A DNA stretch of 56,563 nt from a virus (Duplodnaviria > Caudoviricetes), in IMG/VR virus record IMGVR_UViG_3300044639_001130, positions 1 to 56,563 of that record; one strand, given 5' to 3'. The notes under the pieces were generated by a model, which ran no database searches, was not told the DNA's origin, and was given only the letters and a program-made list of their open reading frames with translations. Made by a program: the position numbers and the translations under genes. The stretch's first letter is position 1, and each line of letters starts with the position of its first letter. This document shows, piece by piece, positions 8,136 through 56,408 of this stretch.

Positions 8136-9623
8136 ATGTCATTAAATCCAGGACAAACTCAAATCGTAAAAGGTTCATGGTCAGCAGACTGTACAACCGA
8201 GTTCGACTTAGTAAGAAACATGCAAAAAATGCCCGAAATACGTAAAGTATTAGAGCGAGTTGACAGACGTCAATTAACAACATTATTAACTTCAGGAGCT
8301 GTAGGACCTTATGGTATCGACGTTAAAGCTGAAACTAAATTTGGAAAAGTAAAAGACAGCCAATTAATTGGTGATTCTTCTTACCGTTTCAACATTATGG
8401 GTCGTATCCAAAAAGCTGCTACTATCCTATCTCAAGTAGGTTCTAGCGGAACTGATGGTTCTTTCCAATTAGTTATCGCTGACGAAGGTGGTCGTGGATG
8501 TTATATCTACAAAGGACAAATCGTATTGTTTGCTAACGCAGGTCGTTACCAAGCTGTAGTTATGTCTACTCCTACTCGTGTAGCTGCTGGATGGTTAGTA
8601 TCTTTCCAAAATCAACAAAAATCAGTATTCTCTTTTGCTACTGTAGTTGCTTCTCAAACAGGTGGTACTTATACTTGTTTCCCTTCTACTACTGCTTACT
8701 CTGAAAAATCTTTAAAAGGATATGGTCGTGACCAATTCCCTGACACTTTCATTGTAGACATGACTACTCAGCGTAAGACTGTATCTATCTCTGGTGGAGC
8801 TGCTACAGACATCTTATGGTATGAATACATGAGTTCTAACGGACCTGTAAAAGGATGGAAATTTGAAAAAGTTCGTCAAGCTGAAGCTCAATGGGCTGTA
8901 GAGAACGAATTTGCTAAAATCTTTGGTGTATCTTCTATGAAGAATGCTGATGGTTCTCGCGCAACAGTTTCTAACTTAATTGATGAAGAAACGGGATTAC
9001 CTATTACTATCGGTGATGGTATCGAAGAGCAAATTGGTGGTGGTAACGAAATTTTCGGTTCTGGTACTAATGGTGAAGCTACTGAAGACGACTTTATTGA
9101 TGCAATGAATATCTTAACTAAATCTAGTAATGATACTGTAGGTGTAAACTTAGTATTTATGACTGGATTAGATGGTTATTATAACGCTCAACGCAAGATG
9201 GCTCGTTTTATTGCTACTCAAAATGCTACTTTGCGTCAAGATGTTAAAGGTGGAGCTTCTATCGAAGTAGGTTACGAAATTATGAAAATGCACTTCGCAG
9301 GAAGTTCAGTTTGTTTCGTACAACATCCTTTATTTGATGATGATTTACGTTTCCCTGCTAAAGGTTCTGATGGAAAATCTATCATGTCATCTACTTATAT
9401 CGGTGGTGATTTAGGAGCTATTAATGATTCAAATATCGAAATCATCGCTAAAGGTGCTTACGGTGTTAATCGTTCTAACGTAGTTGCTACTATCAACGGT
9501 TTAACAGGTATGGCTGGAGAAGCTATCTCTGAAGAAGATGCTTGGAAAATGTCTATGTTACGTGAAGATATGATTGTTATCTACAATACTCGTAGATGGT
9601 GTATCATCCGTAAATCATTCTAA
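8136..9623 (+). CDS. major capsid protein
   Basis: 495 aa, strongly biased codon usage (GCT, CGT, ATC, GGT), position after portal/scaffold, GDGIEEQI motif, followed by a terminator. Confidence 0.85.
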   Translation: MSLNPGQTQIVKGSWSADCTTEFDLVRNMQKMPEIRKVLERVDRRQLTTLLTSGAVGPYGIDVKAETKFGKVKDSQLIGDSSYRFNIMGRIQKAATILSQVGSSGTDGSFQLVIADEGGRGCYIYKGQIVLFANAGRYQAVVMSTPTRVAAGWLVSFQNQQKSVFSFATVVASQTGGTYTCFPSTTAYSEKSLKGYGRDQFPDTFIVDMTTQRKTVSISGGAATDILWYEYMSSNGPVKGWKFEKVRQAEAQWAVENEFAKIFGVSSMKNADGSRATVSNLIDEETGLPITIGDGIEEQIGGGNEIFGSGTNGEATEDDFIDAMNILTKSSNDTVGVNLVFMTGLDGYYNAQRKMARFIATQNATLRQDVKGGASIEVGYEIMKMHFAGSSVCFVQHPLFDDDLRFPAKGSDGKSIMSSTYIGGDLGAINDSNIEIIAKGAYGVNRSNVVATINGLTGMAGEAISEEDAWKMSMLREDMIVIYNTRRWCIIRKSF

Positions 9624-9647
9624 TCTAAGAATAGATATACAATTAAG

Positions 9648-9675
9648 AACCCTTGTAGAAATACAGGGGTTTTTT
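9648..9675 (+). terminator. intrinsic terminator after capsid gene
   Basis: AACCCTTGTA-GAAA-TACAGGGGTT plus T run. Confidence 0.85.
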
Positions 9676-9748
9676 ATTACAAGTTTGTCATATTTTTATA
9701 TCAAAATATTTTATTACATTTGCCTAAACAATTTAAAAAATAAACAAA

Positions 9749-10876
9749 ATGAATGTATTTAATCTTGACTTGAGACAGTCTACGGCGAGAGGCTTAAAAA
9801 AAGATGTAGATTACAAAGAGATTTTGGACGGAAACGGTTTCGCTCATAAATTTGTAAATCTTGAAAACCCTAAGTATTGCCAAATGGAAGGCGTTATTGA
9901 AGTAGAAGCTTTAAAGGTAACTAACAAGCATCTGAATCAAAAAATTATCCGTAAAACTAAAGACAGAAACACAGGTCTTTATTGGGGATTACCAATTAGT
10001 ATTAATCCGGACACAAAGGAATTGATGTGTAAATCTTTTACATTAGAAGATAGAAACATATTCGATTTATCTGTTCCTGACCAAGCTATTGCATGGGCTA
10101 TTTTAAAGAATAGTACTTGTATGGAAGGAAGCCCTAATCTTTATGGAAAACCTTACTACAAGGTAATAGACAAGGAAAAGAAAGCTGCTGAGAATATTAG
10201 CAAGAGAACTATCCGCCAAAGAGCAGAAGTTATCATTTCTAAATTACAAGGTTCTTCTTTACAAGAGATGGCTATTAACTTAGGAGTAAATGTAGATGCT
10301 AATAGAAACATATCTATGCTTACGGATGAAGTTTACCGCAAGATGGAAGAGAATCCAAAAGCATTTATTGAAATGTATGAGAATCCACAAAGACAATACA
10401 TCTCTATCTTTAATAAAGGATTAGCTTTAGGTGTATTAGATTACAATCTTACAGAAGGAACTTATAAGTATAATGGATTACAAATGGGTCATACAAAAGA
10501 AATGGCTATTAAGTACTTGGTAGATAACAACAACTTAGCTACCTCTATTGATACTAGATGCACCTCTTTAGAGAATGAGTCAAGAGAAGCTATGAAACTT
10601 CGCCATGAAGAGCAAAACGAATCAGATGTTTATGATGAAGTTACTGAATTAAGAAAAAGATTAATGGAGGCGGAAGCTTTGTTAAAAGAGAATAAAATAG
10701 AAAAAGAAGTAGAATTTGTTTCTCCTTTTAATTTACCTGAAAAAGCTAAAGATAATGAATCTGAAATGGCAGAATTAAGAGAGAGAGCAAAAGCTCTAAA
10801 GATACCTGGTGCGCACTTGCCGTCAGTTAAAAAAGAGACCCTGCTAGCTAAGATAGCCGAAGCTGAGGGTAAATAG
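9749..10876 (+). CDS. conserved phage protein with C-terminal HeH/Rho-N-like motif
   Basis: C-terminal ELRERAKALKIPG...KKETLLAKIAE; has its own TAnnTTTG element at 9715. Confidence 0.45.
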   Translation: MNVFNLDLRQSTARGLKKDVDYKEILDGNGFAHKFVNLENPKYCQMEGVIEVEALKVTNKHLNQKIIRKTKDRNTGLYWGLPISINPDTKELMCKSFTLEDRNIFDLSVPDQAIAWAILKNSTCMEGSPNLYGKPYYKVIDKEKKAAENISKRTIRQRAEVIISKLQGSSLQEMAINLGVNVDANRNISMLTDEVYRKMEENPKAFIEMYENPQRQYISIFNKGLALGVLDYNLTEGTYKYNGLQMGHTKEMAIKYLVDNNNLATSIDTRCTSLENESREAMKLRHEEQNESDVYDEVTELRKRLMEAEALLKENKIEKEVEFVSPFNLPEKAKDNESEMAELRERAKALKIPGAHLPSVKKETLLAKIAEAEGK

Positions 10877-24600: not shown

Positions 24601-26075
24601 CTAATAGCATAAATTGGGATAGTCCAAGTGGAACAATATTAGAAGGATATTCTTACAATAAAGGATATAGTACAGATGGAACCGCCATTAAATACCCTGG
24701 ACTTCCTTTTAACTTTCAGTTTAGCTCTAAGTTTGAATACAGAACAAGATTTGCAGGAATTAAATACCCCGGCGAGGCTGTAGATTCTTTTAGAAAGTTT
24801 TTAACAGCAGATTATAAAGACTTAGATGGTCAATTAGGAGAAATCAATAATATTCGTTCTAAGGATGGTAGAGTTCTTGTTTGGCAAAACCATGCAGTAA
24901 GTTCTGTTCCCGTGTTAGAAAGGCAGTTATTAGCATCTACAAGCGGAGCAGCAACCACTATCGGTACGGGCGGAGTAATAGACCGTTTTGACCCTATTAA
25001 TTCTTATTTTGGTAATCAACATCAACACGGATTAACTTCTACGGAGTTTGGTTACGTTTGGTTTGATATGAGAAATAGAGCCTTATGTATAATGAGTGTT
25101 GCGGGGAATGTTCAAGAAATATCATTAGTAAAAGGATTACAGTCTTACTTTAATAATCAATTTAATGAAGGGGATGATAATACGCTAACTCCTTCTAACA
25201 TCTACAACACAAATAATTATTCTATGCCCGAAATTCCTTTATTAGGTTATGGCATAGTTGGAGTTTATGACCCAAGATATAAAATGTCTTATGTTACTTT
25301 TAAATATGCTTATGACGAGTCTTTATTAGGTAAAAAAATTAGGATAACTGCAAAAGACTTTACTATTGGATATTCTCATGTATTAGATGCTATTGTAGGT
25401 TTTTATGATTTTACTCCCGGAATATGGCATAATCATAATGATTTAGTATTAAGTGTAAATAACTCTAAAAACTACGTTTATTATGGTGCCAATATGCCTG
25501 AGACTACATTTAATATTGGAGATGTTGTTAAGGTTGATAATGATGATTTTGAGAATAGTCTTTGGGGAGAGTATGTTTGTATTAAGCCAGTAACCATATA
25601 CTCTTATCTTGTTGACGCTAGTTTAGAGCCTGCTTATCCGGGAAGTGTATATTGGGTTAAGATAAACTCAGAAAATGAGATTTACTTACAAACATTCAAT
25701 ACTGATTATTGTAAGTTTTATGGTAAAGTTTATGACCACGAAGTAGAGGTTATTGTTAATCCAAAAGCAGACCAAGCATTTTCCGTATTAAGAATACAAC
25801 AAAAGTCTAATGACACTAATTATTCTTCTGTTTACTTCTCTACTGATGACCAATCTGCTCAAGATACTAACATAGTTAATAATAGTAAAACTTATAGATA
25901 TATAGATAAGAGTTATTATAGTTCTGCTCCATTACCAAGAACAGGCGGCAGATTGACAGACCACTACGTTAAGATTAAATTTGTATTAAAGAATTATTTA
26001 ACTAATCCTACTATAGCTAAGAATAAGAATAAGATATTTCAATTCTTAAAAACTTGGTTTATATCTAGAGATTAA
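21615..26075 (+). CDS. tail nozzle/stabilisation protein (P22 gp10 / crAss muzzle-like)
   Basis: 1486 aa; N-terminal NTFNKGINQD, VYFTDNNNEPR, YRFGILFFDKKG, FGGDCF and YFGNQH motifs. Confidence 0.75.
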   Translation: MDMEEQAIINTFNKGINQDVDFILQPDGTYRNMKNGMLISMDGHHFTIEISKGNKSIKTLNPRYTEDETLFDSPPMPIGFVSFVDKLVVFSTNDVGTGGYGEIGVMTFKKIQDDFVSTYTPYYHHPDLNFSKYHKIEGFSFRENESVERVYFTDNNNEPRVFDIANPIFTNYIGTSGIDITPGILKQYMVLEGVIYYAGNMYGPTDGSGAIVSNIFYSNGIDSTYILITPAAKVIECYPLSLLDWTPSRNLGNIKFKEYAAGAKNCGSSVYFYRLYSSEGKVSTTWSYPSTPIHVGMNNIGSALTGNKYRDFVGNGSTTTLALSPYSVVVTISGIDTDFDTIELCCAEYTQVNDVPYIIKIVNRVAVTGTEMDIEDNGGSNFGDVSISDLTLFPASILKVKTLTTDKNYNLIGNITEREEFDLDLTGVTLSQFQYPMPSHGDITNCSNGNVFLDVSPSVVANPGVGGVLPHSRWIVKLGNNTTDTVEYPSGSGTFYVTGQIITGIEYSASVGDESAIAFTGSASVRPCTTRNRYTSIATGDRVEDYIEFTNQDTSFWDYKNPAVASHNKGYWSSEKYRFGILFFDKKGNPYYVKYINDFDFSTPYAKGGLMVEDNISSSLKSYALNPSAIKLSDLNIPESIMNEVSGFSIVRAERDKRILTQGLLMQTVIDPTIGANRLMPLGISKTNLSYYDTFYTPKGDLSTCICPDWLVGYVPNNTQSGIGYIGEKIEEAFWLDGGDIRAHSDFHVLTTKMFNTMPPDTLSPRVRTLQSMNGSGGKGFDEYHGDVDLIDDRDFYNRESDLSAYSVNNDYGFAVNYSCVASQNWDLNYQVIPLIKSVGCRKLMIMPSAFNHYGPAPDSYNWWGQRYNYKKIVINFLSNKEKSAQYGGQSESAIANTLYISTGHFQPINDAVKADTLNGSFPNGENKYTFNDIEIFGGDCFTNLFDINYGLWSQEYQTTDNSMSYSLFFPCEGTVNYNLRRGNKASNISTYPAAPNSINWDSPSGTILEGYSYNKGYSTDGTAIKYPGLPFNFQFSSKFEYRTRFAGIKYPGEAVDSFRKFLTADYKDLDGQLGEINNIRSKDGRVLVWQNHAVSSVPVLERQLLASTSGAATTIGTGGVIDRFDPINSYFGNQHQHGLTSTEFGYVWFDMRNRALCIMSVAGNVQEISLVKGLQSYFNNQFNEGDDNTLTPSNIYNTNNYSMPEIPLLGYGIVGVYDPRYKMSYVTFKYAYDESLLGKKIRITAKDFTIGYSHVLDAIVGFYDFTPGIWHNHNDLVLSVNNSKNYVYYGANMPETTFNIGDVVKVDNDDFENSLWGEYVCIKPVTIYSYLVDASLEPAYPGSVYWVKINSENEIYLQTFNTDYCKFYGKVYDHEVEVIVNPKADQAFSVLRIQQKSNDTNYSSVYFSTDDQSAQDTNIVNNSKTYRYIDKSYYSSAPLPRTGGRLTDHYVKIKFVLKNYLTNPTIAKNKNKIFQFLKTWFISRD

Positions 26076-26102
26076 AAATATTTTAAAAAAATATGACAAA
26101 TT

Positions 26103-26128
26103 TGTAACCTTTCATAATTTCTTTCGTT
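26103..26128 (+). promoter_or_regulatory. ECF-sigma-like promoter TGTAAC-N16-CGTT
   Basis: Same motif and spacing at 51215-51240 on the - strand. Confidence 0.5.
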
Positions 26129-26161
26129 AAACAAGTATAAACCCTTTAAAACTTAGAAATT

Positions 26162-46939: not shown

Positions 46940-47163
46940 ATTACTCTATTAATTCATCTATAACTATATTATGCTTTTCCATCAAGTCGTATATCTCATA
47001 AAATACCTTGTCTATATCGGAATCATTTTCTAGTTTGTGTCTGAGGTTATGTGTTATTTCCAATAATACAAGTGTCATATCTAAAGATTTATTTGCTCTT
47101 TTGTAAGCCATCTTATCTTCTTGGTTGTTTAAATCAAATTCTATTGTTGCTTTCATATTGTTT

Positions 47164-47442
47164 TTATTTTAAATTAAATACTTTGTCTAAATTAATCTGA
47201 ATATTCCATTGTAAATCTGAAACATCAACTTTTTTAGGTTCCTTTATTAATAACTCCTTTGCTTTTGATTTACTTAAATGTTTCCTATTAATTAACCATG
47301 CTTTAGCAGTTTCATTAAAACCAATATGAACTGGCAAATTAGTAATATTAAATAACTCCTTTTGTCTAAATGCTAAAGTTTGATTTTCAAATACAAAGTA
47401 ATTTGAGTATGTTATAAAATATTCATTGTTTGGCTTTTCCAT
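47164..47442 (-). CDS. hypothetical protein flanking the cassette array
   Basis: 92-aa ORF with no tyrosine-recombinase motifs. Confidence 0.5.
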   Translation of the reverse strand: MEKPNNEYFITYSNYFVFENQTLAFRQKELFNITNLPVHIGFNETAKAWLINRKHLSKSKAKELLIKEPKKVDVSDLQWNIQINLDKVFNLK

Positions 47443-47498
47443 ATTGATTTTATTGGTGATTTAAAGGTTAGTTGGTTTTAGCAAGTAGTTACCAGCAA

Positions 47499-47711
47499 TT
47501 AGACATCGAACCCTTCCAACATTAATTTGTTGTGTAATATCTCGAGCCTTTCTCTCGGACTAAATAGGATATTGAAATCTTCCCACTTAATTCCACAAAT
47601 TAATGCTGATACTTCTTTAAGTCCCATTTTCTGATTAAGCGATAACGATTTATACCAACTAACTGCTGGTAACAGTACCTTTAAGCCATTTTTTATTTCT
47701 TTGTTATTCAT
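47499..47711 (-). CDS. cassette 1 hypothetical protein
   Basis: ATG lies inside the loop of hairpin 1; stop codon lies inside the cassette-terminal repeat. Confidence 0.6.
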   Translation of the reverse strand: MNNKEIKNGLKVLLPAVSWYKSLSLNQKMGLKEVSALICGIKWEDFNILFSPRERLEILHNKLMLEGFDV

Positions 47712-47771
47712 ATTCGTTAATTATTGTTTTAAATTAATATTTGGTAAACGGCTCAAAGCTGCAAAGCGTTA
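47670..47771 (+). repeat. attC-like hairpin 1 (102 bp)
   Basis: TAAC-A-GTACCTTTAAGCCATTT ... AAACGGCTCAAAGCTGC-AAAGC-GTTA. Confidence 0.75.
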
Positions 47772-47797
47772 GTTTCAATAAAATAAACCATTGATGT

Positions 47798-48187
47798 TTA
47801 CTTTTCTAATGTTAATATAGGTTGATAAATATTACCTTTTACCTCACAATTTCCATTAATATATGAAGATGTTTGCATATCAAAAGATGTGTAAAATGGA
47901 GTTTTTCTATTAAAGTCATTTTGATGCGTATTTATTGCAAAACCTCCTGCAACCCTAAATACATTATACATAAAGTTTTTATTTTTATCTTCTAAAATAT
48001 CACCTTCATAAATTTCAACTCCATTTTTGTCCTTTAACCCTATAAGTTGCATAGGCTCTGAGTTATGAATATCATTTGATTCATTAAACCATTGATAGCC
48101 TTTCCTTACAGGTTTGCCATCATTTATATTAACATCGCATCGCATTTCCTTACCATTCCATGCCCTAAACTTAATTTCTCTGTTCAT
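47798..48187 (-). CDS. cassette 2: YopX family protein
   Basis: MNREIKFRAW...MQLIGLKDKNGVEIYEGDIL...EVKGNIY. Confidence 0.9.
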   Translation of the reverse strand: MNREIKFRAWNGKEMRCDVNINDGKPVRKGYQWFNESNDIHNSEPMQLIGLKDKNGVEIYEGDILEDKNKNFMYNVFRVAGGFAINTHQNDFNRKTPFYTSFDMQTSSYINGNCEVKGNIYQPILTLEK

Positions 48188-48228
48188 ATTTTTTTATTTT
48201 AATTTATTTGGTTTATTTTACTGTAAAC

Positions 48229-48302
48229 TAACAAAATATTCAATCAATTTGGCTATTACATAATTGCTCAGACAGCCAAACAGATTAAATATCCAGCCGT
48301 TA
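48229..48302 (+). repeat. attC-like hairpin 2 (74 bp)
   Basis: TAAC-A-AAATATTCAATCAATTTGGCT ... AGCCAAACAGATTAAATATCC-AGCC-GTTA. Confidence 0.75.
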
Positions 48303-48310
48303 TGGGAAAT

Positions 48311-48538
48311 TCAATTTTTTACCCACCGCACCAGTGAATACCACAAACGCTTGAAGTTGTCTGTAATATCAGTTCTACGTTCTTTTTTACAATAGGCATT
48401 TAAGCCATCTTCAATTCCACTAAATTTGCCTGTATGTTCAAGCGATTTGTTAAATGTGATTTCATAGGTTGCTGAACCTGTTTCGCTGTAACCAATAAAT
48501 TTGTGCATTACAACTCTGTACTCTTTATCTTTTTTCAT
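48311..48538 (-). CDS. cassette 3 hypothetical protein
   Basis: 75-aa ORF filling the segment between hairpins 2 and 3. Confidence 0.6.
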   Translation of the reverse strand: MKKDKEYRVVMHKFIGYSETGSATYEITFNKSLEHTGKFSGIEDGLNAYCKKERRTDITDNFKRLWYSLVRWVKN

Positions 48539-48584
48539 TTTGAAATTTGTTTACGCCAACCCACAAAAAAAATGAACTATCCCA

Positions 48585-48672
48585 TAACACGGGTTTGGCA
48601 AAATGCCGCAGGACAGTTAGTGCTAAAAATTAAGTTTCGAGTAGCGGCACTTCGCCAAGCCCGAAACCGTTA
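48585..48672 (+). repeat. attC-like hairpin 3 (88 bp)
   Basis: TAAC-A-CGGGTTTGGCAAAATGCCGC ... GCGGCACTTCGCCAAGCCCG-AAACC-GTTA. Confidence 0.85.
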
Positions 48673-48687
48673 TAGGTAAGTTGTGTA

Positions 48688-48912
48688 TCATTTAGAAACA
48701 TTTTTGATAAGCGTATAATAGTGTTTTGTTATTCCGCTAAAATCAGTTTTCAATTCTAAATTATTTGCGAATCTTTCTTTAGCTGAATTATATTGTTTTT
48801 CAGTAATTCTAATATTACCAACATTATAACCAAAGTGCTTTATGAAAAAAGTAATTATTAAACTTTCGCCATTATTTATTCTTTCATCTATTTCTTTTTG
48901 TGTAATTCTCAT
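48688..48912 (-). CDS. cassette 4 hypothetical protein
   Basis: 74-aa ORF between hairpins 3 and 4. Confidence 0.6.
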   Translation of the reverse strand: MRITQKEIDERINNGESLIITFFIKHFGYNVGNIRITEKQYNSAKERFANNLELKTDFSGITKHYYTLIKNVSK

Positions 48913-48964
48913 AATTAGTTTTTTTATATTGTGTATTAATTAAAAATTCGTTACAACCTACCTA

Positions 48965-49022
48965 TAACCCAACCCTTACCCAACTCGGTCGACACCTTCG
49001 CTGGGTAAGGCTTCATCCGTTA
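48965..49022 (+). repeat. attC-like hairpin 4 (58 bp)
   Basis: TAAC-C-CAACCCTTACCCA ... TGGGTAAGGCTTC-ATCC-GTTA. Confidence 0.8.
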
Positions 49023-49029
49023 TGTGCCA

Positions 49030-49236
49030 TTATAAGTGACCACCCTCCACAAACTTGACTAAATGGTCGGCACACCATTGAGCCTTATTTAGTGGGTCTA
49101 ATGATAGATAGTTTTTCATCCAAGCATCTTTAGTCATTCCATGCTTCATAACGGCTTTCACTTGCTCAAATCTATCATCTGTAAATAAGTCAAGTTTGCC
49201 TTGTTCCTTTAATATCTTCTTTGTTTCTACTTTCAT
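49030..49236 (-). CDS. cassette 5 hypothetical protein
   Basis: ATG start at 49236 (MKVETKK...); the frame stays open to a TTG at 49287 inside hairpin 5. Confidence 0.55.
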   Translation of the reverse strand: MKVETKKILKEQGKLDLFTDDRFEQVKAVMKHGMTKDAWMKNYLSLDPLNKAQWCADHLVKFVEGGHL

Positions 49237-49257
49237 CTTGTGAATAATAACGGCACA

Positions 49258-49346
49258 TAACAAGGGTTTTGCGTAATAGCCCTTCAAATGTCGTGGTTAA
49301 TTTTAAGTTTCTACTAAGGGCTACTACGCAAAGCCCCGATACGTTA
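49258..49346 (+). repeat. attC-like hairpin 5 (89 bp)
   Basis: TAAC-AA-GGGTTTTGCGTAATAGCCCTT ... AAGGGCTACTACGCAAAGCCC-CGATAC-GTTA. Confidence 0.85.
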
Positions 49347-49379
49347 TAAGCAAGTGGGCGAAAATGCCCACCAGACTTA

Positions 49380-49728
49380 TAACACGGGCTAAGAAGAAAG
49401 TTTTTAAAAAGCCCACGCACGGTTTATGCTTCTGAATCAAATTCAAGTGCAATAAAGTTTTGTGTTTCTGGAAATACTTCCTGCAACTCTTTTAATTCTT
49501 CTTCTGTATGCACTTGGAACACTCCAATTGATTTATATACGCCTGATGAACTTGGTTCGTCAGAGGCATCTTCCTCATTCTTTTTTGTGTCAAAAATGCA
49601 AACCTCCACATCCAATGGAAATTTTTGTAACTGCTTAATCAATTGTTCGTTTTTCATTTTGTATTTATTTAGTTGTTAATAATTCCTACGCTATTTTTTA
49701 AAAACCTTCTCTTAGCCCGAAAACGTTA
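49380..49728 (+). repeat. attC-like hairpin 6 (349 bp, gene in loop)
   Basis: TAAC-A-CGGGCTAAGAAGAAAGTTTTTAAAAA ... TTTTTAAAAACCTTCTCTTAGCCCG-AAAAC-GTTA. Confidence 0.75.
49424..49657 (-). CDS. hypothetical protein inside hairpin 6 loop
   Basis: 77 aa; MKNEQLIKQLQKFPLDVEV resembles the N-terminus of common small phage proteins. Confidence 0.65.
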   Translation of the reverse strand: MKNEQLIKQLQKFPLDVEVCIFDTKKNEEDASDEPSSSGVYKSIGVFQVHTEEELKELQEVFPETQNFIALEFDSEA

Positions 49729-49751
49729 CCACTCATTTTGCTTTAAATATT

Positions 49752-49979
49752 CTAAAGAAGTTCAAGTTTTTGTTTAACTGATTTCCAATAATTTATAGAT
49801 AATTCAATATCTTCTCCAAAAGTCCCACCATCTCCCAAAATTGGTAATGATGGACTTGAATTAATTATTTCATTTACTGTTATTATCGAATGAATTATAG
49901 CGTTTCGGTAACCATCACATTCTACACATCTCATTTGATAACTTTCAATCAAGTCATTTGCTTTCTCTTTTGGTGTCAT
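49752..49979 (-). CDS. cassette 7 hypothetical protein
   Basis: MTPKEKANDL...YWKSVKQKLELL, a pattern I associate with small Bacteroidota phage proteins. Confidence 0.65.
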   Translation of the reverse strand: MTPKEKANDLIESYQMRCVECDGYRNAIIHSIITVNEIINSSPSLPILGDGGTFGEDIELSINYWKSVKQKLELL

Positions 49980-50035
49980 ATTTTTTTTGTTTTAATTTTC
50001 TATTAATGTTTAATTTAAGTACTCAAAACGTGTGG

Positions 50036-50105
50036 TAACATCACCTAATAAACAGGCGGACATCTACTATATTTCCACCACGCGTCTATTAGCTGCAAAA
50101 CGTTA
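50036..50105 (+). repeat. attC-like hairpin 7 (70 bp)
   Basis: TAAC-A-TCACCTAATAAAC ... GTCTATTAGCTGC-AAAAC-GTTA. Confidence 0.7.
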
Positions 50106-50109
50106 ATCA

Positions 50110-50388
50110 TTAATATTCTTTAATTTCTCCTGTTTTATTATTAGTTAATTTAACTGATTTTAAATCATTTTTACCATCATCAACCCAAATAAATGTACTT
50201 TGCATAATTTCCCAATTCTCTTTCCCTTTGGTTTGTTCAGGATGCGCTGCTTTAACTTTATCTAACATATCAACCGAATAATGTAACCATTGCAATAAGT
50301 CAATTGAAAATCTTTCAAAGTTTTCTTTATTCACTACATTTATTAATTTCTCAAATGTATTAATCTCGTATTTTTTAGCTTTTTTCAT
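50110..50388 (-). CDS. hypothetical protein flanking the array
   Basis: 92-aa ORF whose stop lies just outside the last GTTA. Confidence 0.55.
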   Translation of the reverse strand: MKKAKKYEINTFEKLINVVNKENFERFSIDLLQWLHYSVDMLDKVKAAHPEQTKGKENWEIMQSTFIWVDDGKNDLKSVKLTNNKTGEIKEY

Positions 50389-50412
50389 AATTATATGTTT
50401 TTGTTTTTAAGT

Positions 50413-50601
50413 TTACAATGCGTTATAATAACATTCAGCTTCTTCTTTCGTTTTAAATTGCGCAATTGTTATTACCGTTCCCCTTTTTAAAACTCTTACA
50501 ATCCATTTATCTGCCAATTCAGCATAACTAACTCCAACTTTTTTGTTTTTACACATACCTTTTTTTTTGGAATAAGAGTTTCCGTAATTTATCCCTGCCA
50601 T
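50413..50601 (-). CDS. small AP2-like DNA-binding protein
   Basis: VGVSY...KWIVRV...FKTKEEAECYYN. Confidence 0.55.
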   Translation of the reverse strand: MAGINYGNSYSKKKGMCKNKKVGVSYAELADKWIVRVLKRGTVITIAQFKTKEEAECYYNAL

Positions 50602-50604
50602 CAG

Positions 50605-51186
50605 TTAAGCCGTTACTATTATATCTTTAAAGAACCTAACTCCATTAACTGTTCCTTCTTTTAAGAACTCTTTATTAGTAGACATATATTCTTTTACTTT
50701 AGCTTCATCTATACATAACCATTCTCTAGGTATTTGAGATATATCAGCAACTTCAAATTTCCATGTATGCCTTAATCTTGTAGTCTTGTTAGCTTCCGCC
50801 TCTAACTCTATCTGAGCAGCATCTTCTTCTGTTTTAGCCAACATTAATTTTTTAGCTATTTCTTCTTGCTTTTTAATCTCAAAGCTTTTAATCTGATTTT
50901 TAGCATGAACTAAAGCTGTATTTAAAGCTCCTGTTAGATTCTTGGCAGTAGAGTCTATTAATCTACCTTCGTCAATAGATGGTTGCTTTAATTCAACTCT
51001 TTTAGCCTCTACAGCCTTTACTAATCCATTTGCTTTAGATAAGTTCTGCTGAGCAATAGATAGGCTAGTTTCGCAAATAACTTTAATCTGTAAGCAGTTG
51101 TTAGCTATTGTGTCTAATTCATCTTTTAAAGCAGATAATCCTACTAAGGATGCTGCTAATTTCGGGTTTACTAATTGATTTTCCAT
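50605..51186 (-). CDS. conserved phage coiled-coil protein
   Basis: Long helices plus TWKFEVADISQIPREWL...VNGVRFF; ECF-like promoter upstream. Confidence 0.5.
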   Translation of the reverse strand: MENQLVNPKLAASLVGLSALKDELDTIANNCLQIKVICETSLSIAQQNLSKANGLVKAVEAKRVELKQPSIDEGRLIDSTAKNLTGALNTALVHAKNQIKSFEIKKQEEIAKKLMLAKTEEDAAQIELEAEANKTTRLRHTWKFEVADISQIPREWLCIDEAKVKEYMSTNKEFLKEGTVNGVRFFKDIIVTA

Positions 51187-51214
51187 GTTGCTTATTGTTT
51201 GATTTATATAGTTT

Positions 51215-51240
51215 AACGTAAATAAAAATAAAAGGTTACA
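51215..51240 (-). promoter_or_regulatory. ECF-sigma-like promoter TGTAAC-N16-CGTT
   Basis: Same motif, spacing and upstream ATATGACAA as at 26091-26128. Confidence 0.5.
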
Positions 51241-51573
51241 AGTTTGTCATATTTTTTTTATAATTCGTAAACATTCCCTTCATTAGCCATTTTATTAAGA
51301 TGCCATTCTGCAATTTTAGTTTTAAGTATATCCTCTAATTGCTTCTTTTTATGTTCCTCCGCAACCTTGTAGACCTTAATTCTAAAGTCGGTTTTACACT
51401 CTTTCCACAATTCTTTTTTCTTATCTATATCTATATCTATTGGACCTATTTTACTTATCATATCGTAAATCTTAGCTCCCGCGATATAGTTTAATAAATA
51501 TCCTTCTCCATTATGCTTAATAAACATATCGTAGAACCCTTTAAAGGATTCTTTTACAAGCAATTGTTCTATT

Positions 51574-53786: not shown

Positions 53787-55325
53787 TTATTTTCTATTTT
53801 TCCATTCTATTGTAGAGTATTGACCTCTAGTAGCCCCTTCATTAATATCGTATCCTTTATTTTTAAGATAATCTACTTGTACCTTATTCGCAGGAAGTTC
53901 AGATATAATCTCGTTACACATAGCTTTAGTGTAAACTGTATTTTTAATATCGTACCCTAATCCCTCTATCCAAGTTAATTGTGCTTGTGTTGCAGGTTCT
54001 CTCATTCTAATAGAATCACTTAATACCGGCTTAGGTAGTTTTAATAAATTTACCTTTTCGTCTTTGCCCAATGTGTGTTCTATTTTTGCTAATCTAGCAT
54101 TTCTTTCGTCTAATAATAAATTCTTTTTCTCTTGAGTAGTAAAACATCTTTCTTCAATAGGCTTCTTTTTATCAAGTTCCCAAGCGTTAATTAAATTATG
54201 TCTATTAGTTACATCAACAACATCTAAAATAATAGCATTTTGACCAAACTTTTCTGCAAATGTAGGTGTTTTTAATCTAGCTGTTCTTCCAATGCTTTGT
54301 AAATATTTAGTTAGAGACTTAGTTGGACATGCCATAATCGCACAACCTGTATCAATGTGGTCAAATCCAGCTACTAAAATATTTACGTTAGTAATTACTT
54401 CTATCTTACCTTCTTTAAATTTAGATATATTCTCACTTCTTTCAGGCGTTAATTCTTCATTACTACTTACGGCTACTGCATTTATACCATTCGTTTGGAA
54501 TACTTCCGCTAAATCTACAGCGTGTTGTATGCTTACACAAAAGGCTATGGTTTGTCTACCTACCGCATATTCTTTCCACTTATCAACTATTAATTGATTT
54601 CTTGCTAATGTATTTACTTCGTTTGATAAATCTCCTTGGTTTAAATCGCCGGCAGTTGTTTTAACCTTATCTAAATCAACATTAGTTTTTATTCTAATAG
54701 CGTCTAATTCAGCGCACCAATTATCCTTAATACCTTCCCCTAGTCCGTAGTCAAATGATATAGAATCAAATATATCTCCTAGCATCATGCCATCTGCCCT
54801 TGTTGGAGTTGCTGTACATCCTAATAATAACTTAGGTTTAAAGTGCTCTATAACGCTATATGCCGATTTGCTCCCGAAAAGGTGTGCTTCGTCACATATA
54901 ATACAATCGTAATAATCGCTTGGCAACTTACTTAAACGTCTCACTACGGTCATAACGGAACCCATAACAACATTTGCATCAGGCTTAAATATATCTCCTT
55001 TTATGCAGCCCATACTAAAGCCTTTCATGGCAAATCTCGATGAATCATCCTTAACATAATCTAAAAAACCTACTTCTTTAACATGATTATAAAATTGTTC
55101 ATCAAACTTATCTGCTATAAAAGCCATAGCTGATTGCGATACGAGCTCCTCTTGAAAACTCAGCCATAATACGCGTTTGAACCCCATTTTTTCAAGTAGC
55201 TTTATTAGAATATATGTTTTTCCTGCGCCGGTAAAAAGGCAAATTAATTGAGATAACACTCCTTTATCATAATTACTCATTACGGCATCGTGGCATTTCT
55301 CTTGATATGGTCTAAGTTTTTTCAT
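53787..55325 (-). CDS. superfamily 2 DExH helicase
   Basis: LRPYQ, TGAGKT, DEAH, TATP, GFD and QSIGRTAR motifs. Confidence 0.92.
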   Translation of the reverse strand: MKKLRPYQEKCHDAVMSNYDKGVLSQLICLFTGAGKTYILIKLLEKMGFKRVLWLSFQEELVSQSAMAFIADKFDEQFYNHVKEVGFLDYVKDDSSRFAMKGFSMGCIKGDIFKPDANVVMGSVMTVVRRLSKLPSDYYDCIICDEAHLFGSKSAYSVIEHFKPKLLLGCTATPTRADGMMLGDIFDSISFDYGLGEGIKDNWCAELDAIRIKTNVDLDKVKTTAGDLNQGDLSNEVNTLARNQLIVDKWKEYAVGRQTIAFCVSIQHAVDLAEVFQTNGINAVAVSSNEELTPERSENISKFKEGKIEVITNVNILVAGFDHIDTGCAIMACPTKSLTKYLQSIGRTARLKTPTFAEKFGQNAIILDVVDVTNRHNLINAWELDKKKPIEERCFTTQEKKNLLLDERNARLAKIEHTLGKDEKVNLLKLPKPVLSDSIRMREPATQAQLTWIEGLGYDIKNTVYTKAMCNEIISELPANKVQVDYLKNKGYDINEGATRGQYSTIEWKNRK

Positions 55326-56005
55326 TAAGCTGCTATAAATGATGTTTTATTCTTTTTATAATTGTTTAAGTATTTGTAAATAGTGCCTTCTTTATATTTG
55401 ACTTGAGAATCAGTTGCCAACTTAACGGTTTCGTAAAATATACCAGTCTCTACATTTAACACTAGTTTTGCCTTTGGGTTATTTCCGCCTAAATATTTCC
55501 CTTCTTTTTTTTGAGACATTATCAGTCTAGTTGCTAAATCGTGTTTCTTTTTATAAAATCCATTATCAACTCCTTTTAAACCTATTACCTTATATCCACT
55601 AGCGTATCTTTTATTCATTTGGATTCTGGCTTTTTCCTTTGTCTCATCTGAAACAACTCTATTTTTAGCAATTTCACTAATCTTCTTTTTTGATTCTTCG
55701 CTCCATTTATAACCTCTATTACTAGATGCGGTTGGAGATAAATTGCAACATTTTTTATTAGAAATATGAAAATTAATATATCCTTGTTCTATCTCATCTA
55801 GCTTATCGTATTCGCAAAGCTCTATTATTATAAATTCTGGCAATCCGTATTTATCAGAAATTCTTTGAATAACCTTATTGCAATGTTTTTGTTTTCTAAT
55901 CTTGGTAAAATGTTGAACTTTTCTTTCTTTTAAATTTACGGACTGACCATAATAATAATATCCAGAATCTTTCCATTCTAATTTATAAATACCTGATTGT
56001 TTCAT
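55325..56005 (-). CDS. GIY-YIG homing endonuclease with NUMOD-like repeats
   Basis: SGIY...YYGQS...R..QH...E; SEESKKKIS and SDETKEK repeats; NNPKAK. Confidence 0.85.
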   Translation of the reverse strand: MKQSGIYKLEWKDSGYYYYGQSVNLKERKVQHFTKIRKQKHCNKVIQRISDKYGLPEFIIIELCEYDKLDEIEQGYINFHISNKKCCNLSPTASSNRGYKWSEESKKKISEIAKNRVVSDETKEKARIQMNKRYASGYKVIGLKGVDNGFYKKKHDLATRLIMSQKKEGKYLGGNNPKAKLVLNVETGIFYETVKLATDSQVKYKEGTIYKYLNNYKKNKTSFIAA

Positions 56006-56011
56006 TAGTTA

Positions 56012-56107
56012 AAAATACCCGCGCTAATACAAGGGCTCAACCGTTGCTTATTAGCTTCGGACAATGTAAAAGGCGGGATTATTTTAAATATTTTCATACG
56101 GTTGAGC
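56012..56107 (-). promoter_or_regulatory. structured (pseudoknot-capable) 5' leader with coupled uORF
   Basis: Three interleaved complementary pairs; 30-aa uORF at 56097-56005 whose TAA overlaps the endonuclease ATG. Confidence 0.55.
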
Positions 56108-56111
56108 AATA

Positions 56112-56143
56112 CAAATTTAACTAATTATAATAATATATACAAA
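56112..56143 (-). promoter_or_regulatory. Bacteroidota sigma70 promoter TTTG-N20-TAAATTTG
   Basis: Both -33 and -7 elements are present at canonical spacing. Confidence 0.75.
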
Positions 56144-56147
56144 TTTT

Positions 56148-56408
56148 TTAACCATTTTCACGAATCTTTTTAAGTTCTTTAATGAAGTTAGCGTAGGTTA
56201 TCATAAACGTACTAGATACTTTGTTATAAGCTTCTTCTATATCAGATACGCTATACTTTTCTTCATCTTTAATTTCTTCCCAATCTAAAGAATCTTCTAC
56301 TACCCACTTGACAATAGCTTCCCCTTCTTTATAAGCATAATAATAGTTTTTATTTTGAACCCCTTGTTCTACAATTATTCCCGTTCTTTTGTGTTTGTAC
56401 TTTTTCAT
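56148..56408 (-). CDS. hypothetical protein
   Basis: 86-aa ORF with an A-rich start region. Confidence 0.5.
   Translation of the reverse strand: MKKYKHKRTGIIVEQGVQNKNYYYAYKEGEAIVKWVVEDSLDWEEIKDEEKYSVSDIEEAYNKVSSTFMITYANFIKELKKIRENG

Follow-up and report, generated by a model that had tools for sequence, protein, structure and literature searches.

An array of seven probable integron-like cassettes, each with its own inverted repeat and a fixed wobble pair, in a lake-water tailed phage

RESULTS

Units, hairpins, and their setting

The IMG/VR virus record IMGVR_UViG_3300044639_001130 (Duplodnaviria; Caudoviricetes) is a linear sequence of 56,563 bases with an estimated completeness of 74%, and its full length is referred to here as the window. 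Between 47488 and 50101 on the - strand it carries an array in which seven units, each bounded by an inverted repeat, alternate with hairpins; this array is the subject of the present analysis. The + strand up to ~42.4 kb encodes terminase, portal, head, and tail genes, and the - strand from ~42.4 kb to the end forms an early/replication module (Cpn10, NinG, YopX, DnaB helicase, SNF2-type helicase, and GIY-YIG endonuclease), with a sign switch of GC skew at ~42 kb and a window GC content of ~32%. The array lies amid very small - strand open reading frames (ORFs), with NinG on one side and DnaB on the other, inside a variable block (47174-50604, - strand) that is missing from a close relative, L001. 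The window sequence was matched in lake-water metagenome runs, and it is a tailed phage with a lake-water Flavobacterium-type host.

Each of the seven consecutive units, all on the - (coding) strand between 47488 and 50039, has its own GTTA...TAAC inverted repeat. The arms are GTTACCAGCAGTTAG / GTTACCAGCAATTAG in unit 1 (47488-47673), 23-24 nt long with one extra base in the upstream arm in unit 2 (47768-48232), GTTATGGGATAGTTCA / GTTATGGGAAATTCA in unit 3 (48299-48588), 16 nt long in unit 4 (48669-48968; GTTATAGGTAGGTTGT / GTTATAGGTAAGTTGT), GTTATGTGCCGTTAT / GTTATGTGCCATTAT in unit 5 (49019-49261), and GTTACCACACGTTTTG / GTTACCACTCATTTTG in unit 7 (49725-50039). Unit 6 (49343-49383) is only 41 nt long and carries no cargo, and its arms, GTTATAAGTCTGGTGGGC / GTTATAAGCAAGTGGGC, close on a 6-nt loop. 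All seven start/end pairs listed in an initial annotation, made from the letters alone, were present in the sequence. Its coordinates stood for five units, while the starts of units 2 and 7 are corrected to 47768 and 49725; for unit 6 it gave only GTTATAAG, a pair that is present in a stem that is in fact longer (~17 bp with one bulge).

The initial annotation had also placed the match within each unit and not across the hairpin, and the scores agreed: anchored extension gave 12, 13, 10, 13, 12, 8, and 10 for the own arms of units 1-7, compared with 4-5 across the hairpin. Comparable matches between the ends of different cassettes, which it had named as evidence to the contrary, were not seen, foreign-arm pairs having a mean score of 4.5 and a maximum of 7. 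The sum of the own-arm scores was matched by only 1 of 5,040 permutations. We then applied to the whole window a strict detector, which demands perfect agreement over the first eight positions, starting at GTTA (8/8), and over the four that come after position 11 (4/4), position 11 itself being left free; it returned exactly seven units on the - strand, all within 47488-50039, whereas 100 first-order Markov simulations yielded a mean of 0.78 units per window and at most 4. Because perfect matches are required, this detector undercounts units. A looser scan of the whole window gave nine matches, namely, five array units, one in the hairpin 6 repeat, and three elsewhere. A chance origin of the repeats is ruled out by the permutations, the simulations, and the foreign-arm control. 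After hairpin 7 there is also a lone arm (GTTAATCA..., at 50102), for which the strict detector found no partner.

A wobble pair at a fixed position

At position 11 of the arm (12 where there is an extra base), all seven units have G in the upstream arm and A in the reverse complement of the downstream arm, which gives G.T on the - strand and A.C on the + strand. The bias toward A.C on + and G.T on - that had been noted is therefore real, and what had been read as scattered substitutions is an invariant wobble at one position. In three window units, units 2 and 6 among them, an extra base stands at positions 9-10 of the upstream arm.

The same wobble was found in relatives, which were sampled as 255 distinct instances of an exact 18-mer from the 3' half of hairpin 3; this sample is built on one 18-mer and hence represents a single hairpin family. 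A strict partner arm lay downstream in 98 of the 255 instances, and 101 of the other 157 had <1200 nt of sequence remaining. Position 11 was G/A in 98/98 partnered instances, corresponding to 64/64 distinct arms, and a foreign arm placed at the same spot had a partner in 4 of 747 trials. The repeat ended at position 15 in 53 of the 64 distinct arms, at position 16 in 7, and at positions 21-27 in 4, in line with the earlier proposal that the stems exceed 7 bp. Arm positions 8-11 of the relatives were conserved as GC(A/T)G versus GCAA, and position 16 was mostly T versus A. Position 5 was T, G, or C and never A, with T commonest in both gap classes.

Hairpins between the units

The hairpins share a frame that reads, on the - strand, TAAC, five unpaired bases starting with G, then a stem-loop rich in GC, 1-3 further bases, and GTTA. 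This TAAC...GTTA frame was present at all window hairpins, though their stem sequences differ. Hairpins 1 (47674-47767), 2 (48233-48298), 4 (48969-49018), and 7 (50040-50101) form the site cores of the cassettes with the same numbers. Hairpin 3 (48589-48668) reads TAAC-GGTTT-CGGGCTTGGCGAAG...TTTTGCCAAACCCG-T-GTTA and belongs to a very widespread family; hairpin 5 (49262-49342), with the companion arm GTTATGTGCCGTT, represents a second widespread family. Some hairpins have 18-19-nt conserved ends in common. No match was found in an Rfam scan of the window at gathering thresholds, and the region 47000-50700 contained 0 terminator-like sites and no enrichment of promoter-like sites (14 versus 18.8 expected).

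The exact 18-mer of hairpin 3 occurred in at least 130 stretches of viral sequence and at least 126 of Bacteroidota genomes, the latter including Flavobacterium, Chitinophagaceae, Sphingobacteriaceae, Cytophagales, and Saprospiraceae, as well as in 13 records of isolated Flavobacterium phages. Across 128 distinct viral contexts, conservation around it was limited by TAAC on one side and GTTA on the other. The ORFs that start in the loop and run through the 18-mer use all three frames (22, 12, and 3 of 37), so that the constraint acts on the nucleic acid and not on a peptide.

The hairpin and the downstream unit as one cassette

Hairpin type was associated with the downstream arm (adjusted mutual information, 0.32) far more than with the upstream arm (0.045), and upstream and downstream arms were independent of each other (0.019). 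Hairpin 5, together with the first 13-14 nt of the arm, recurred at 86-97% identity in loci L064, L027, L050, L156, L073, and L075, where the cargo was different in all five that were aligned and the closing arm matched in the three with a visible unit end. This association and the recurrence of hairpin 5 indicate that arm, hairpin, and arm are one conserved module. Larger blocks were shared as well: unit 3 and hairpin 3 are common to the window (48298-48680) and locus L006 as a single block of 86% identity, and hairpin 4 with the first ~54 nt of unit 4 is 83.5% identical to L283 and L278. The expectation that the mobile entity is the GTT..AAC unit alone was thus not borne out, as the arm association, the L006 block, and the blocks shared by L283 and L284 (below) all include the upstream hairpin. 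In the linear array the module is split at the TAAC/hairpin edge, and a cassette consists of a hairpin and the unit downstream of it on the coding strand.

The ORFs of the array are all on the best-folding strand and follow the hairpin. The first (47499-47711, - strand) has its start codon in the loop of hairpin 1, runs through the 3' stem and GTTA, and stops inside the terminal arm of unit 1. Unit 2 encodes a YopX-family protein (47798-48187), the only named cargo in the window, and units 3, 4, 5, and 7 have cargo ORFs at 48311-48538, 48688-48912, 49236 (ATG) to 49030 (end), and 49752-49979. A small ORF in L001 (~9070-9295) likewise starts in a hairpin loop and ends in a terminal arm.

Cassette 6 (49343-49724) is turned inside out relative to the others. 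The stem arms of hairpin 6 (49384-49724), at 49385-49410 and 49694-49719, surround an ORF at 49424-49657; with unit 6 empty, the cargo of this cassette therefore lies in the hairpin loop and not between the unit arms.

Folding of the circularized site

The initial annotation had regarded the within-unit match as expected if units circularize at G|TT, and had proposed that it is the folded - strand on which selection acts. We joined the end arm, hairpin, and start arm of each cassette in silico and folded the junction with DNA parameters. The - strand folded better in 6/6 window cassettes, by 2.3-9.6 kcal/mol (- versus +: -17.5/-12.8, -17.5/-12.9, -25.2/-22.9, -22.7/-16.7, -30.8/-27.3, and -19.7/-10.1 kcal/mol). 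On the same strand, the array context, in which the hairpin adjoins a foreign arm, folded less well than the circular form, with differences of 3.8-10.4 kcal/mol. Among 47 non-redundant relatives, the coding strand was better in 47/47 (mean, 5.0 kcal/mol) and the circular form beat the array context in 47/47 (mean, 8.7 kcal/mol). In the minimum-energy structures, only the coding strand had a continuous outer stem, 15-16 bp long and stacked on the inner hairpin. Hairpins alone were less one-sided, the - strand being better in 4/6 from the window (-5.4/-3.4 kcal/mol for hairpin 1, -9.5/-7.0 for hairpin 2, -12.0/-8.4 for hairpin 4, and -8.6/-1.6 for hairpin 7) and the coding strand in 36/47 from relatives.

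Shuffling between relatives

In L001, whose DnaB is 98% identical to that of the window, 80 bp stand in place of 47174-50604. Between DnaB and its upstream neighbor, L001 instead has two other cassettes that obey the G/A rule, one of them with a methylase, at a site where the window has no cassettes. The comparison of the two gave no clean target site, the edges of the array being gene ends as well. Contigs from other lake samples (X4 and X5), which show variants and not events, added further arrangements. The array is absent from an X4 contig in which 47158 is joined to 50605 with seven letters between. An X5 contig joins 47766 to 48668 and skips cassettes 2 and 3, with CGTTA common to both sides and a shorter side of 24 letters; another joint in X5, from 49012 to 49724, skips cassettes 5 and 6 with a side of 232. 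Several contig joints fall inside units, where the arms are retained and the cargo is different, as in unit 4, with joints from 48704-48708 to 48919-48938.

Two recombinase-linked arrays, L283 and L284, are 98.75% identical from the attI-like region (below) through the recombinase and have four cassettes in common, differently ordered and 97.7-100% identical. Relative to the end of the TAAC that precedes it, the start of a shared block lies 3-5 nt earlier in three cases and 12 nt earlier in the fourth; at the other end, three blocks finish no more than 2 nt from their own TAAC, whereas one extends 28 nt into the next hairpin. The breakpoints fall at the TAAC/hairpin edge with a resolution of ≤5 nt, which is coarser than a single phosphate. 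Over exactly 47488-47674, unit 1 of the window matches a unit of the recombinase-linked arrays L280, L283, and L284 at 88.8% identity.

A linked Xer-like recombinase and an attI-like sequence

For a protein-anchored view, we used the best 80 of at least 552 viral recombinase loci. These loci held 152 units upstream of the gene on the recombinase strand, none downstream, and 1 overlapping the gene, with more sequence searched downstream (266 kb) than upstream (181 kb). At least one strict unit was present in 52 of the 58 loci that had 700 nt or more of upstream sequence, and none of the 58 had units on the opposite strand. The nearest unit end lay 53-98 nt before the alignment start of the recombinase gene in 26 of the 54 loci with an upstream unit. 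Inter-unit gaps in these arrays were 40-122 nt in 76 of 98, and the other 22 (357-1421 nt) may have the same inside-out layout as cassette 6.

The linked recombinase is Xer-like, ~265-300 aa long, and starts 40-70 nt past the terminal TAAC of the cassette. In NCBIfam it scored 206 bits against XerA (cut-off, 220) and 155 bits against the integron-integrase model TIGR02249 (cut-off, 265); recombinases beside related arrays scored 155, 133, and 151 bits with the latter, all below 265. The TIGR02249 match came in two stretches, with profile positions of roughly 179-238 missing, that is, without the IntI insertion. The best solved relative was the archaeal XerA of Pyrococcus (4a8e), and IntI4 (2a3v) matched the C-terminal part only. 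According to the accessible part of Smyshlyaev et al. 2021, the IntI insertion is not fully conserved in an "integron-like" subgroup.

Between the last cassette and the recombinase, ~30 viral loci have the sequence TAAC-TA(C/T)TATATGTAAA...AATAAAATCAAYA...ATG, and the conserved motif TAAC-TAYTATATGTAAA trails the last cassette in recombinase-linked arrays. A version of this attI-like sequence is retained in the window after unit 1 (47443-47487, - strand), where TAAC is followed by TACTTGC... and ...CCAATAAAATCAAT and then by ATG. The ORF of 92 aa that this ATG opens (47164-47442, - strand) is unrelated to the recombinase, a relationship that was considered and rejected (hhalign probability, 0.1). 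A second, longer class of Xer/IntI-like recombinase with an extended N terminus was observed in Bacteroidota contigs (L139, L144, L172, L182, L214, and L217), where it lies no more than a few kb from the hairpin and often on the opposite strand.

Cassette cargo

We scanned the 100 longest of 204 distinct cargo ORFs. DNA methyltransferases accounted for 38 of the 100 (32 N6_N4, 3 C5, 1 D12, 1 MT-A70, and 1 Dam), and other assignments were Mom, a TET-associated glycosyltransferase, two PAPS-reductase-like proteins, the Thoeris inhibitor Tad3, an HNH nuclease, and DUF4326 (twice). One further cargo ORF, a tyrosine recombinase, was taken as a false unit, and 46 of the 100 received no family assignment. 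Among all 204 cargo ORFs, 86 start inside the hairpin. The cassette system of Bacteroidota phages is widespread and mostly stocked with DNA-modification genes. At three loci (L290, 1215-1826; L065, 173-829; L297, 1105-1965), the cargo is of a counter-defense and not a housekeeping kind (Tad3-family Thoeris inhibitor, Mom-family, and TET-associated glycosyltransferase).

Other features of the window

A conserved element of ~60 bp (...AAAAAATATGACAAAYTTGTAACCTTT...CGTTAAAC...) occurs twice in the window (26075-26141 and 51199-51258), in opposite orientations, each copy intergenic and preceding a gene block, and twice in L001 (3160-3229 and 11667-11727); its copies may act as a common promoter or regulatory site. 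L001 lacks a counterpart of the GIY-YIG/NUMOD3 homing-endonuclease gene found in the window (54845-56153; ORF, 55325-56005) and has a different GIY-YIG gene immediately upstream of DnaB (9505-10000). At the far edge of the variable block, two small ORFs are separated by an 11-nt palindrome, GTTATAATAAC (GTTAT-A-ATAAC; 50412-50422), which may be a vestigial empty unit.

DISCUSSION

Comparison with known systems

In classical integrons, the integrase IntI recombines an attI site with the folded bottom strand of attC, with crossover between G and TT. The sites described here have the framing of attC: the TAAC...GTTA frame occurs at all hairpins and own-arm complementarity in 7/7 units, the latter extended to 15 bp. 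As in integrons, an imperfect hairpin lies between ...AAC and GTT..., each cassette begins with a sequence complementary to the inverse core of that cassette, the breakpoint would fall at or near AAC/GTT beside an unpaired spacer, and one strand is favored through unpaired or wobble features; head-to-tail arrays likewise end at an attI-like sequence beside a recombinase reading away from the array. A length of 15 bp and an invariant G.T at position 11 set the outer stem apart from the 7-bp R box of attC, the spacers are 5 nt and 1-3 nt instead of ~5 and 6 nt, and arm position 5 is never A, contrary to the GTTRRRY consensus. Unpaired features sit in the outer arm (positions 9-11) and not between the R and L boxes. 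Integron ORFs are promoterless, lie on the top strand upstream of attC, and are served by Pc; those found here are on the folding strand and follow the site. The linked recombinase has no IntI-specific insertion, and the carriers are phages. The system would work like an integron and is not a classical one, since the IntI insertion, the internal layout of attC, and the ORF arrangement are all absent.

Other modular systems resemble the array in part. The promoter early stem-loops (PeSL) of T4-type phages are repeats of one promoter-plus-terminator sequence that are exchanged by homology. There, too, stem-loops delimit the small accessory genes of hyperplastic phage regions and relatives differ by whole modules; the hairpins of the window, by contrast, differ in sequence and adjoin unit-specific arms, in a region without terminator-like sites or an enrichment of promoter-like ones. 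The pdif sites (XerC/D) of Acinetobacter plasmids are 28-bp duplexes with a 6-bp spacer and are common to different modules. Inverted Xer-type flanks, an implied Xer-family enzyme, and arms that begin TTAT-like recall the pdif modules, whereas the arms in the array are unit specific and stand beside a folded hairpin. HUH systems such as IS200/IS605 or REP/RAYT have subterminal hairpins at both ends, unlike the single hairpin per cassette and paired arms found here, and there was no match to PF01797.

The nearest published account is that of Qi et al. 2023 (PMC9892861), who, in the part of that paper available to us, called clusters of attC sites lacking integron integrases (CALINs) in 17 phages, including Polaribacter phage P12002L. 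Their recombinase-less attC-like clusters in virulent phages, with DNA methyltransferase cassettes, are similar to the arrays described here. CALINs are defined by two or more attC sites that the IntegronFinder covariance model scores, with no integrase close by; no integrase was found in the record analyzed here. Our scan of P12002L revealed the same frame of TAAC, 5 nt, hairpin, and GTTA, with 29-bp own-unit repeats. Within the same portion of that account, the P12002L site attC2, which functioned with IntI1, corresponds to the array-end sequence on the other strand, and the long own-cassette arms, the fixed wobble, the ORF orientation, and the Xer-like recombinase do not appear. A literature search, with subscription journals outside its scope, returned no account of the system beyond Qi et al. 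2023 and none of the long arms, the wobble, or an Xer-like platform.

Proposed mechanism and alternatives

We consider it probable that 47488-50101 consists of seven mobile cassettes whose own arms are the two halves of an attC-like outer stem on which a recombinase of the Xer/IntI lineage acts. The 15-bp ends of a unit would then be the outer-stem halves of one site and not the terminal repeats of a transposon. In the excised circle that we infer, the site would run from the downstream arm to TAAC, five unpaired nt, the GC-rich inner stem-loop, 1-3 nt, and GTTA with the upstream arm. A tyrosine recombinase would most likely cut the folded coding strand between TAA and C (between G and TT on the other strand), at the arm/hairpin boundary, and cassettes could in this way be inserted, excised, or reordered in integron fashion. 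The G.T pair at position 11, often with a bulged base at 9-10, would keep the outer stem continuous on the presumably single-stranded coding strand, with an A.C break on the other. Given this strand difference, position 11 could mark the strand that is used, as extrahelical bases do in attC. A full site would exist only in the excised form, because in the linear array each arm faces a foreign arm and only TAAC/GTTA can pair.

Several observations weigh against this proposal. Neither a tyrosine recombinase (PF00589) nor a homologue of the linked recombinase (A1 profile) was found in the window, nor was a Y1 transposase (PF01797, Y1_Tnp) found in the record; as the record is only 74% complete, the absence of a recombinase from the phage itself is not established. 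Tyrosine recombinases were present in 6 of 31 viral records with the hairpin, and in 1 of the 13 whose completeness was at least 90%. Contig data, which are unable to show rare junctions, revealed neither a circle nor a single-stranded intermediate. The link between hairpin and unit is not absolute, as unit 1 occurs in L280, L283, and L284 without hairpin 1, and one X5 contig has a hairpin-7-like hairpin after unit 4. In the available text of Qi et al. 2023 (PMC9892861), attC1 of P12002L, which has the present architecture, is the sole one of six phage sites without verified IntI1 recombinants. Finally, G.T on the coding strand would be equally expected from an RNA structure.

That last point belongs to an alternative in which the features are RNA structures of early transcripts, with a panhandle around each small gene, hairpins that process or stabilize the message, and exchange by homologous recombination in the conserved parts of the hairpins. 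All wobble pairs are G.U compatible on the transcribed sense strand, many loops hold a start codon (86 of the 204 cargo ORFs), and the 18-19-nt conserved ends of some hairpins could allow homologous exchange. We nevertheless regard this as unlikely: the window hairpins differ in sequence within one TAAC/GTTA frame, three of the four common blocks start at TAAC and not within hairpins, and the polar arrays adjoin a recombinase gene that has 152 units on its upstream side and none on the other. RNA would, moreover, have to close a 465-nt loop, which a circle would not, and 47000-50700 holds 0 terminator-like sites.

Somewhat less credit still goes to an ordinary cluster of integron cassettes (CALIN), with a host IntI acting on its attC sites. 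Its appeal lies in the AAC...GTT frame, the hairpin, and the cassette-specific complementarity of start and end, all classical attC traits, and in the CALINs that Qi et al. 2023 place, in the text accessible to us, in 17 phages, a Polaribacter phage of this architecture among them. The adjoining recombinases lack the IntI insertion, with a split TIGR02249 match of 155 bits against the required 265 and an archaeal XerA as the closest structure; the spacers are 5 and 1-3 nt instead of ~5 and 6, the ORFs are on what would be the bottom strand, and attC1 of P12002L is, in that same text, without a verified IntI1 product. Highly improbable, in our judgment, are small transposons or elements of the kind of miniature inverted-repeat transposable elements, or HUH-type elements (IS200/IS605, REP). 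Every unit does have terminal inverted repeats ending in GTTA/TAAC, and the hairpins stand beside a conserved tetranucleotide, but there are no target-site duplications and no transposase or Y1 gene, the repeats form one conserved module with the adjacent hairpin while the cargo varies, and the arrays are head-to-tail and polar.

Implications for Bacteroidota phages

On a broader proposal we are evenly divided, namely, that Bacteroidota phages have their own integron-like gene capture, with an Xer-type recombinase that lacks the IntI insertion, a folded site with a cassette-specific outer stem of 15 bp, strand choice by wobble and bulge, self-expressing counter-defense cassettes, and service in trans. 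With the complete site confined to the excised circle, insertion would be favored and arrays would be stable. The loop of the site would provide a promoter or start codon, so that each cassette could be a self-expressing counter-defense gene (methylases, Mom, and Tad3) tradeable among phages, and recombinase-less arrays such as that of the window might be served in trans during co-infection.

Sedentary chromosomal integrons are described, in the part of the preprint available (bioRxiv 10.1101/2024.07.02.601686), as stores of anti-phage defense. Both they and the phage arrays would be cassette stores in the conflict between phage and bacterium; the phage arrays are the mirror image, a store of DNA-modification and anti-defense genes on the phage side. 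Cassettes and their exact limits can be called in metagenomes by two simple sequence marks, the fixed wobble and the long arms specific to each cassette. These marks recovered 152 units in 80 loci, none wrongly oriented, and so provide a ready catalogue of candidate anti-defense genes. The array also offers a testable case of a folded DNA site that would distinguish its own strands without the known features of attC. If the proposal is true, phages own a dedicated site-specific means to collect and reorder accessory genes, a phage-side counterpart of the bacterial integrons that store anti-phage defenses.

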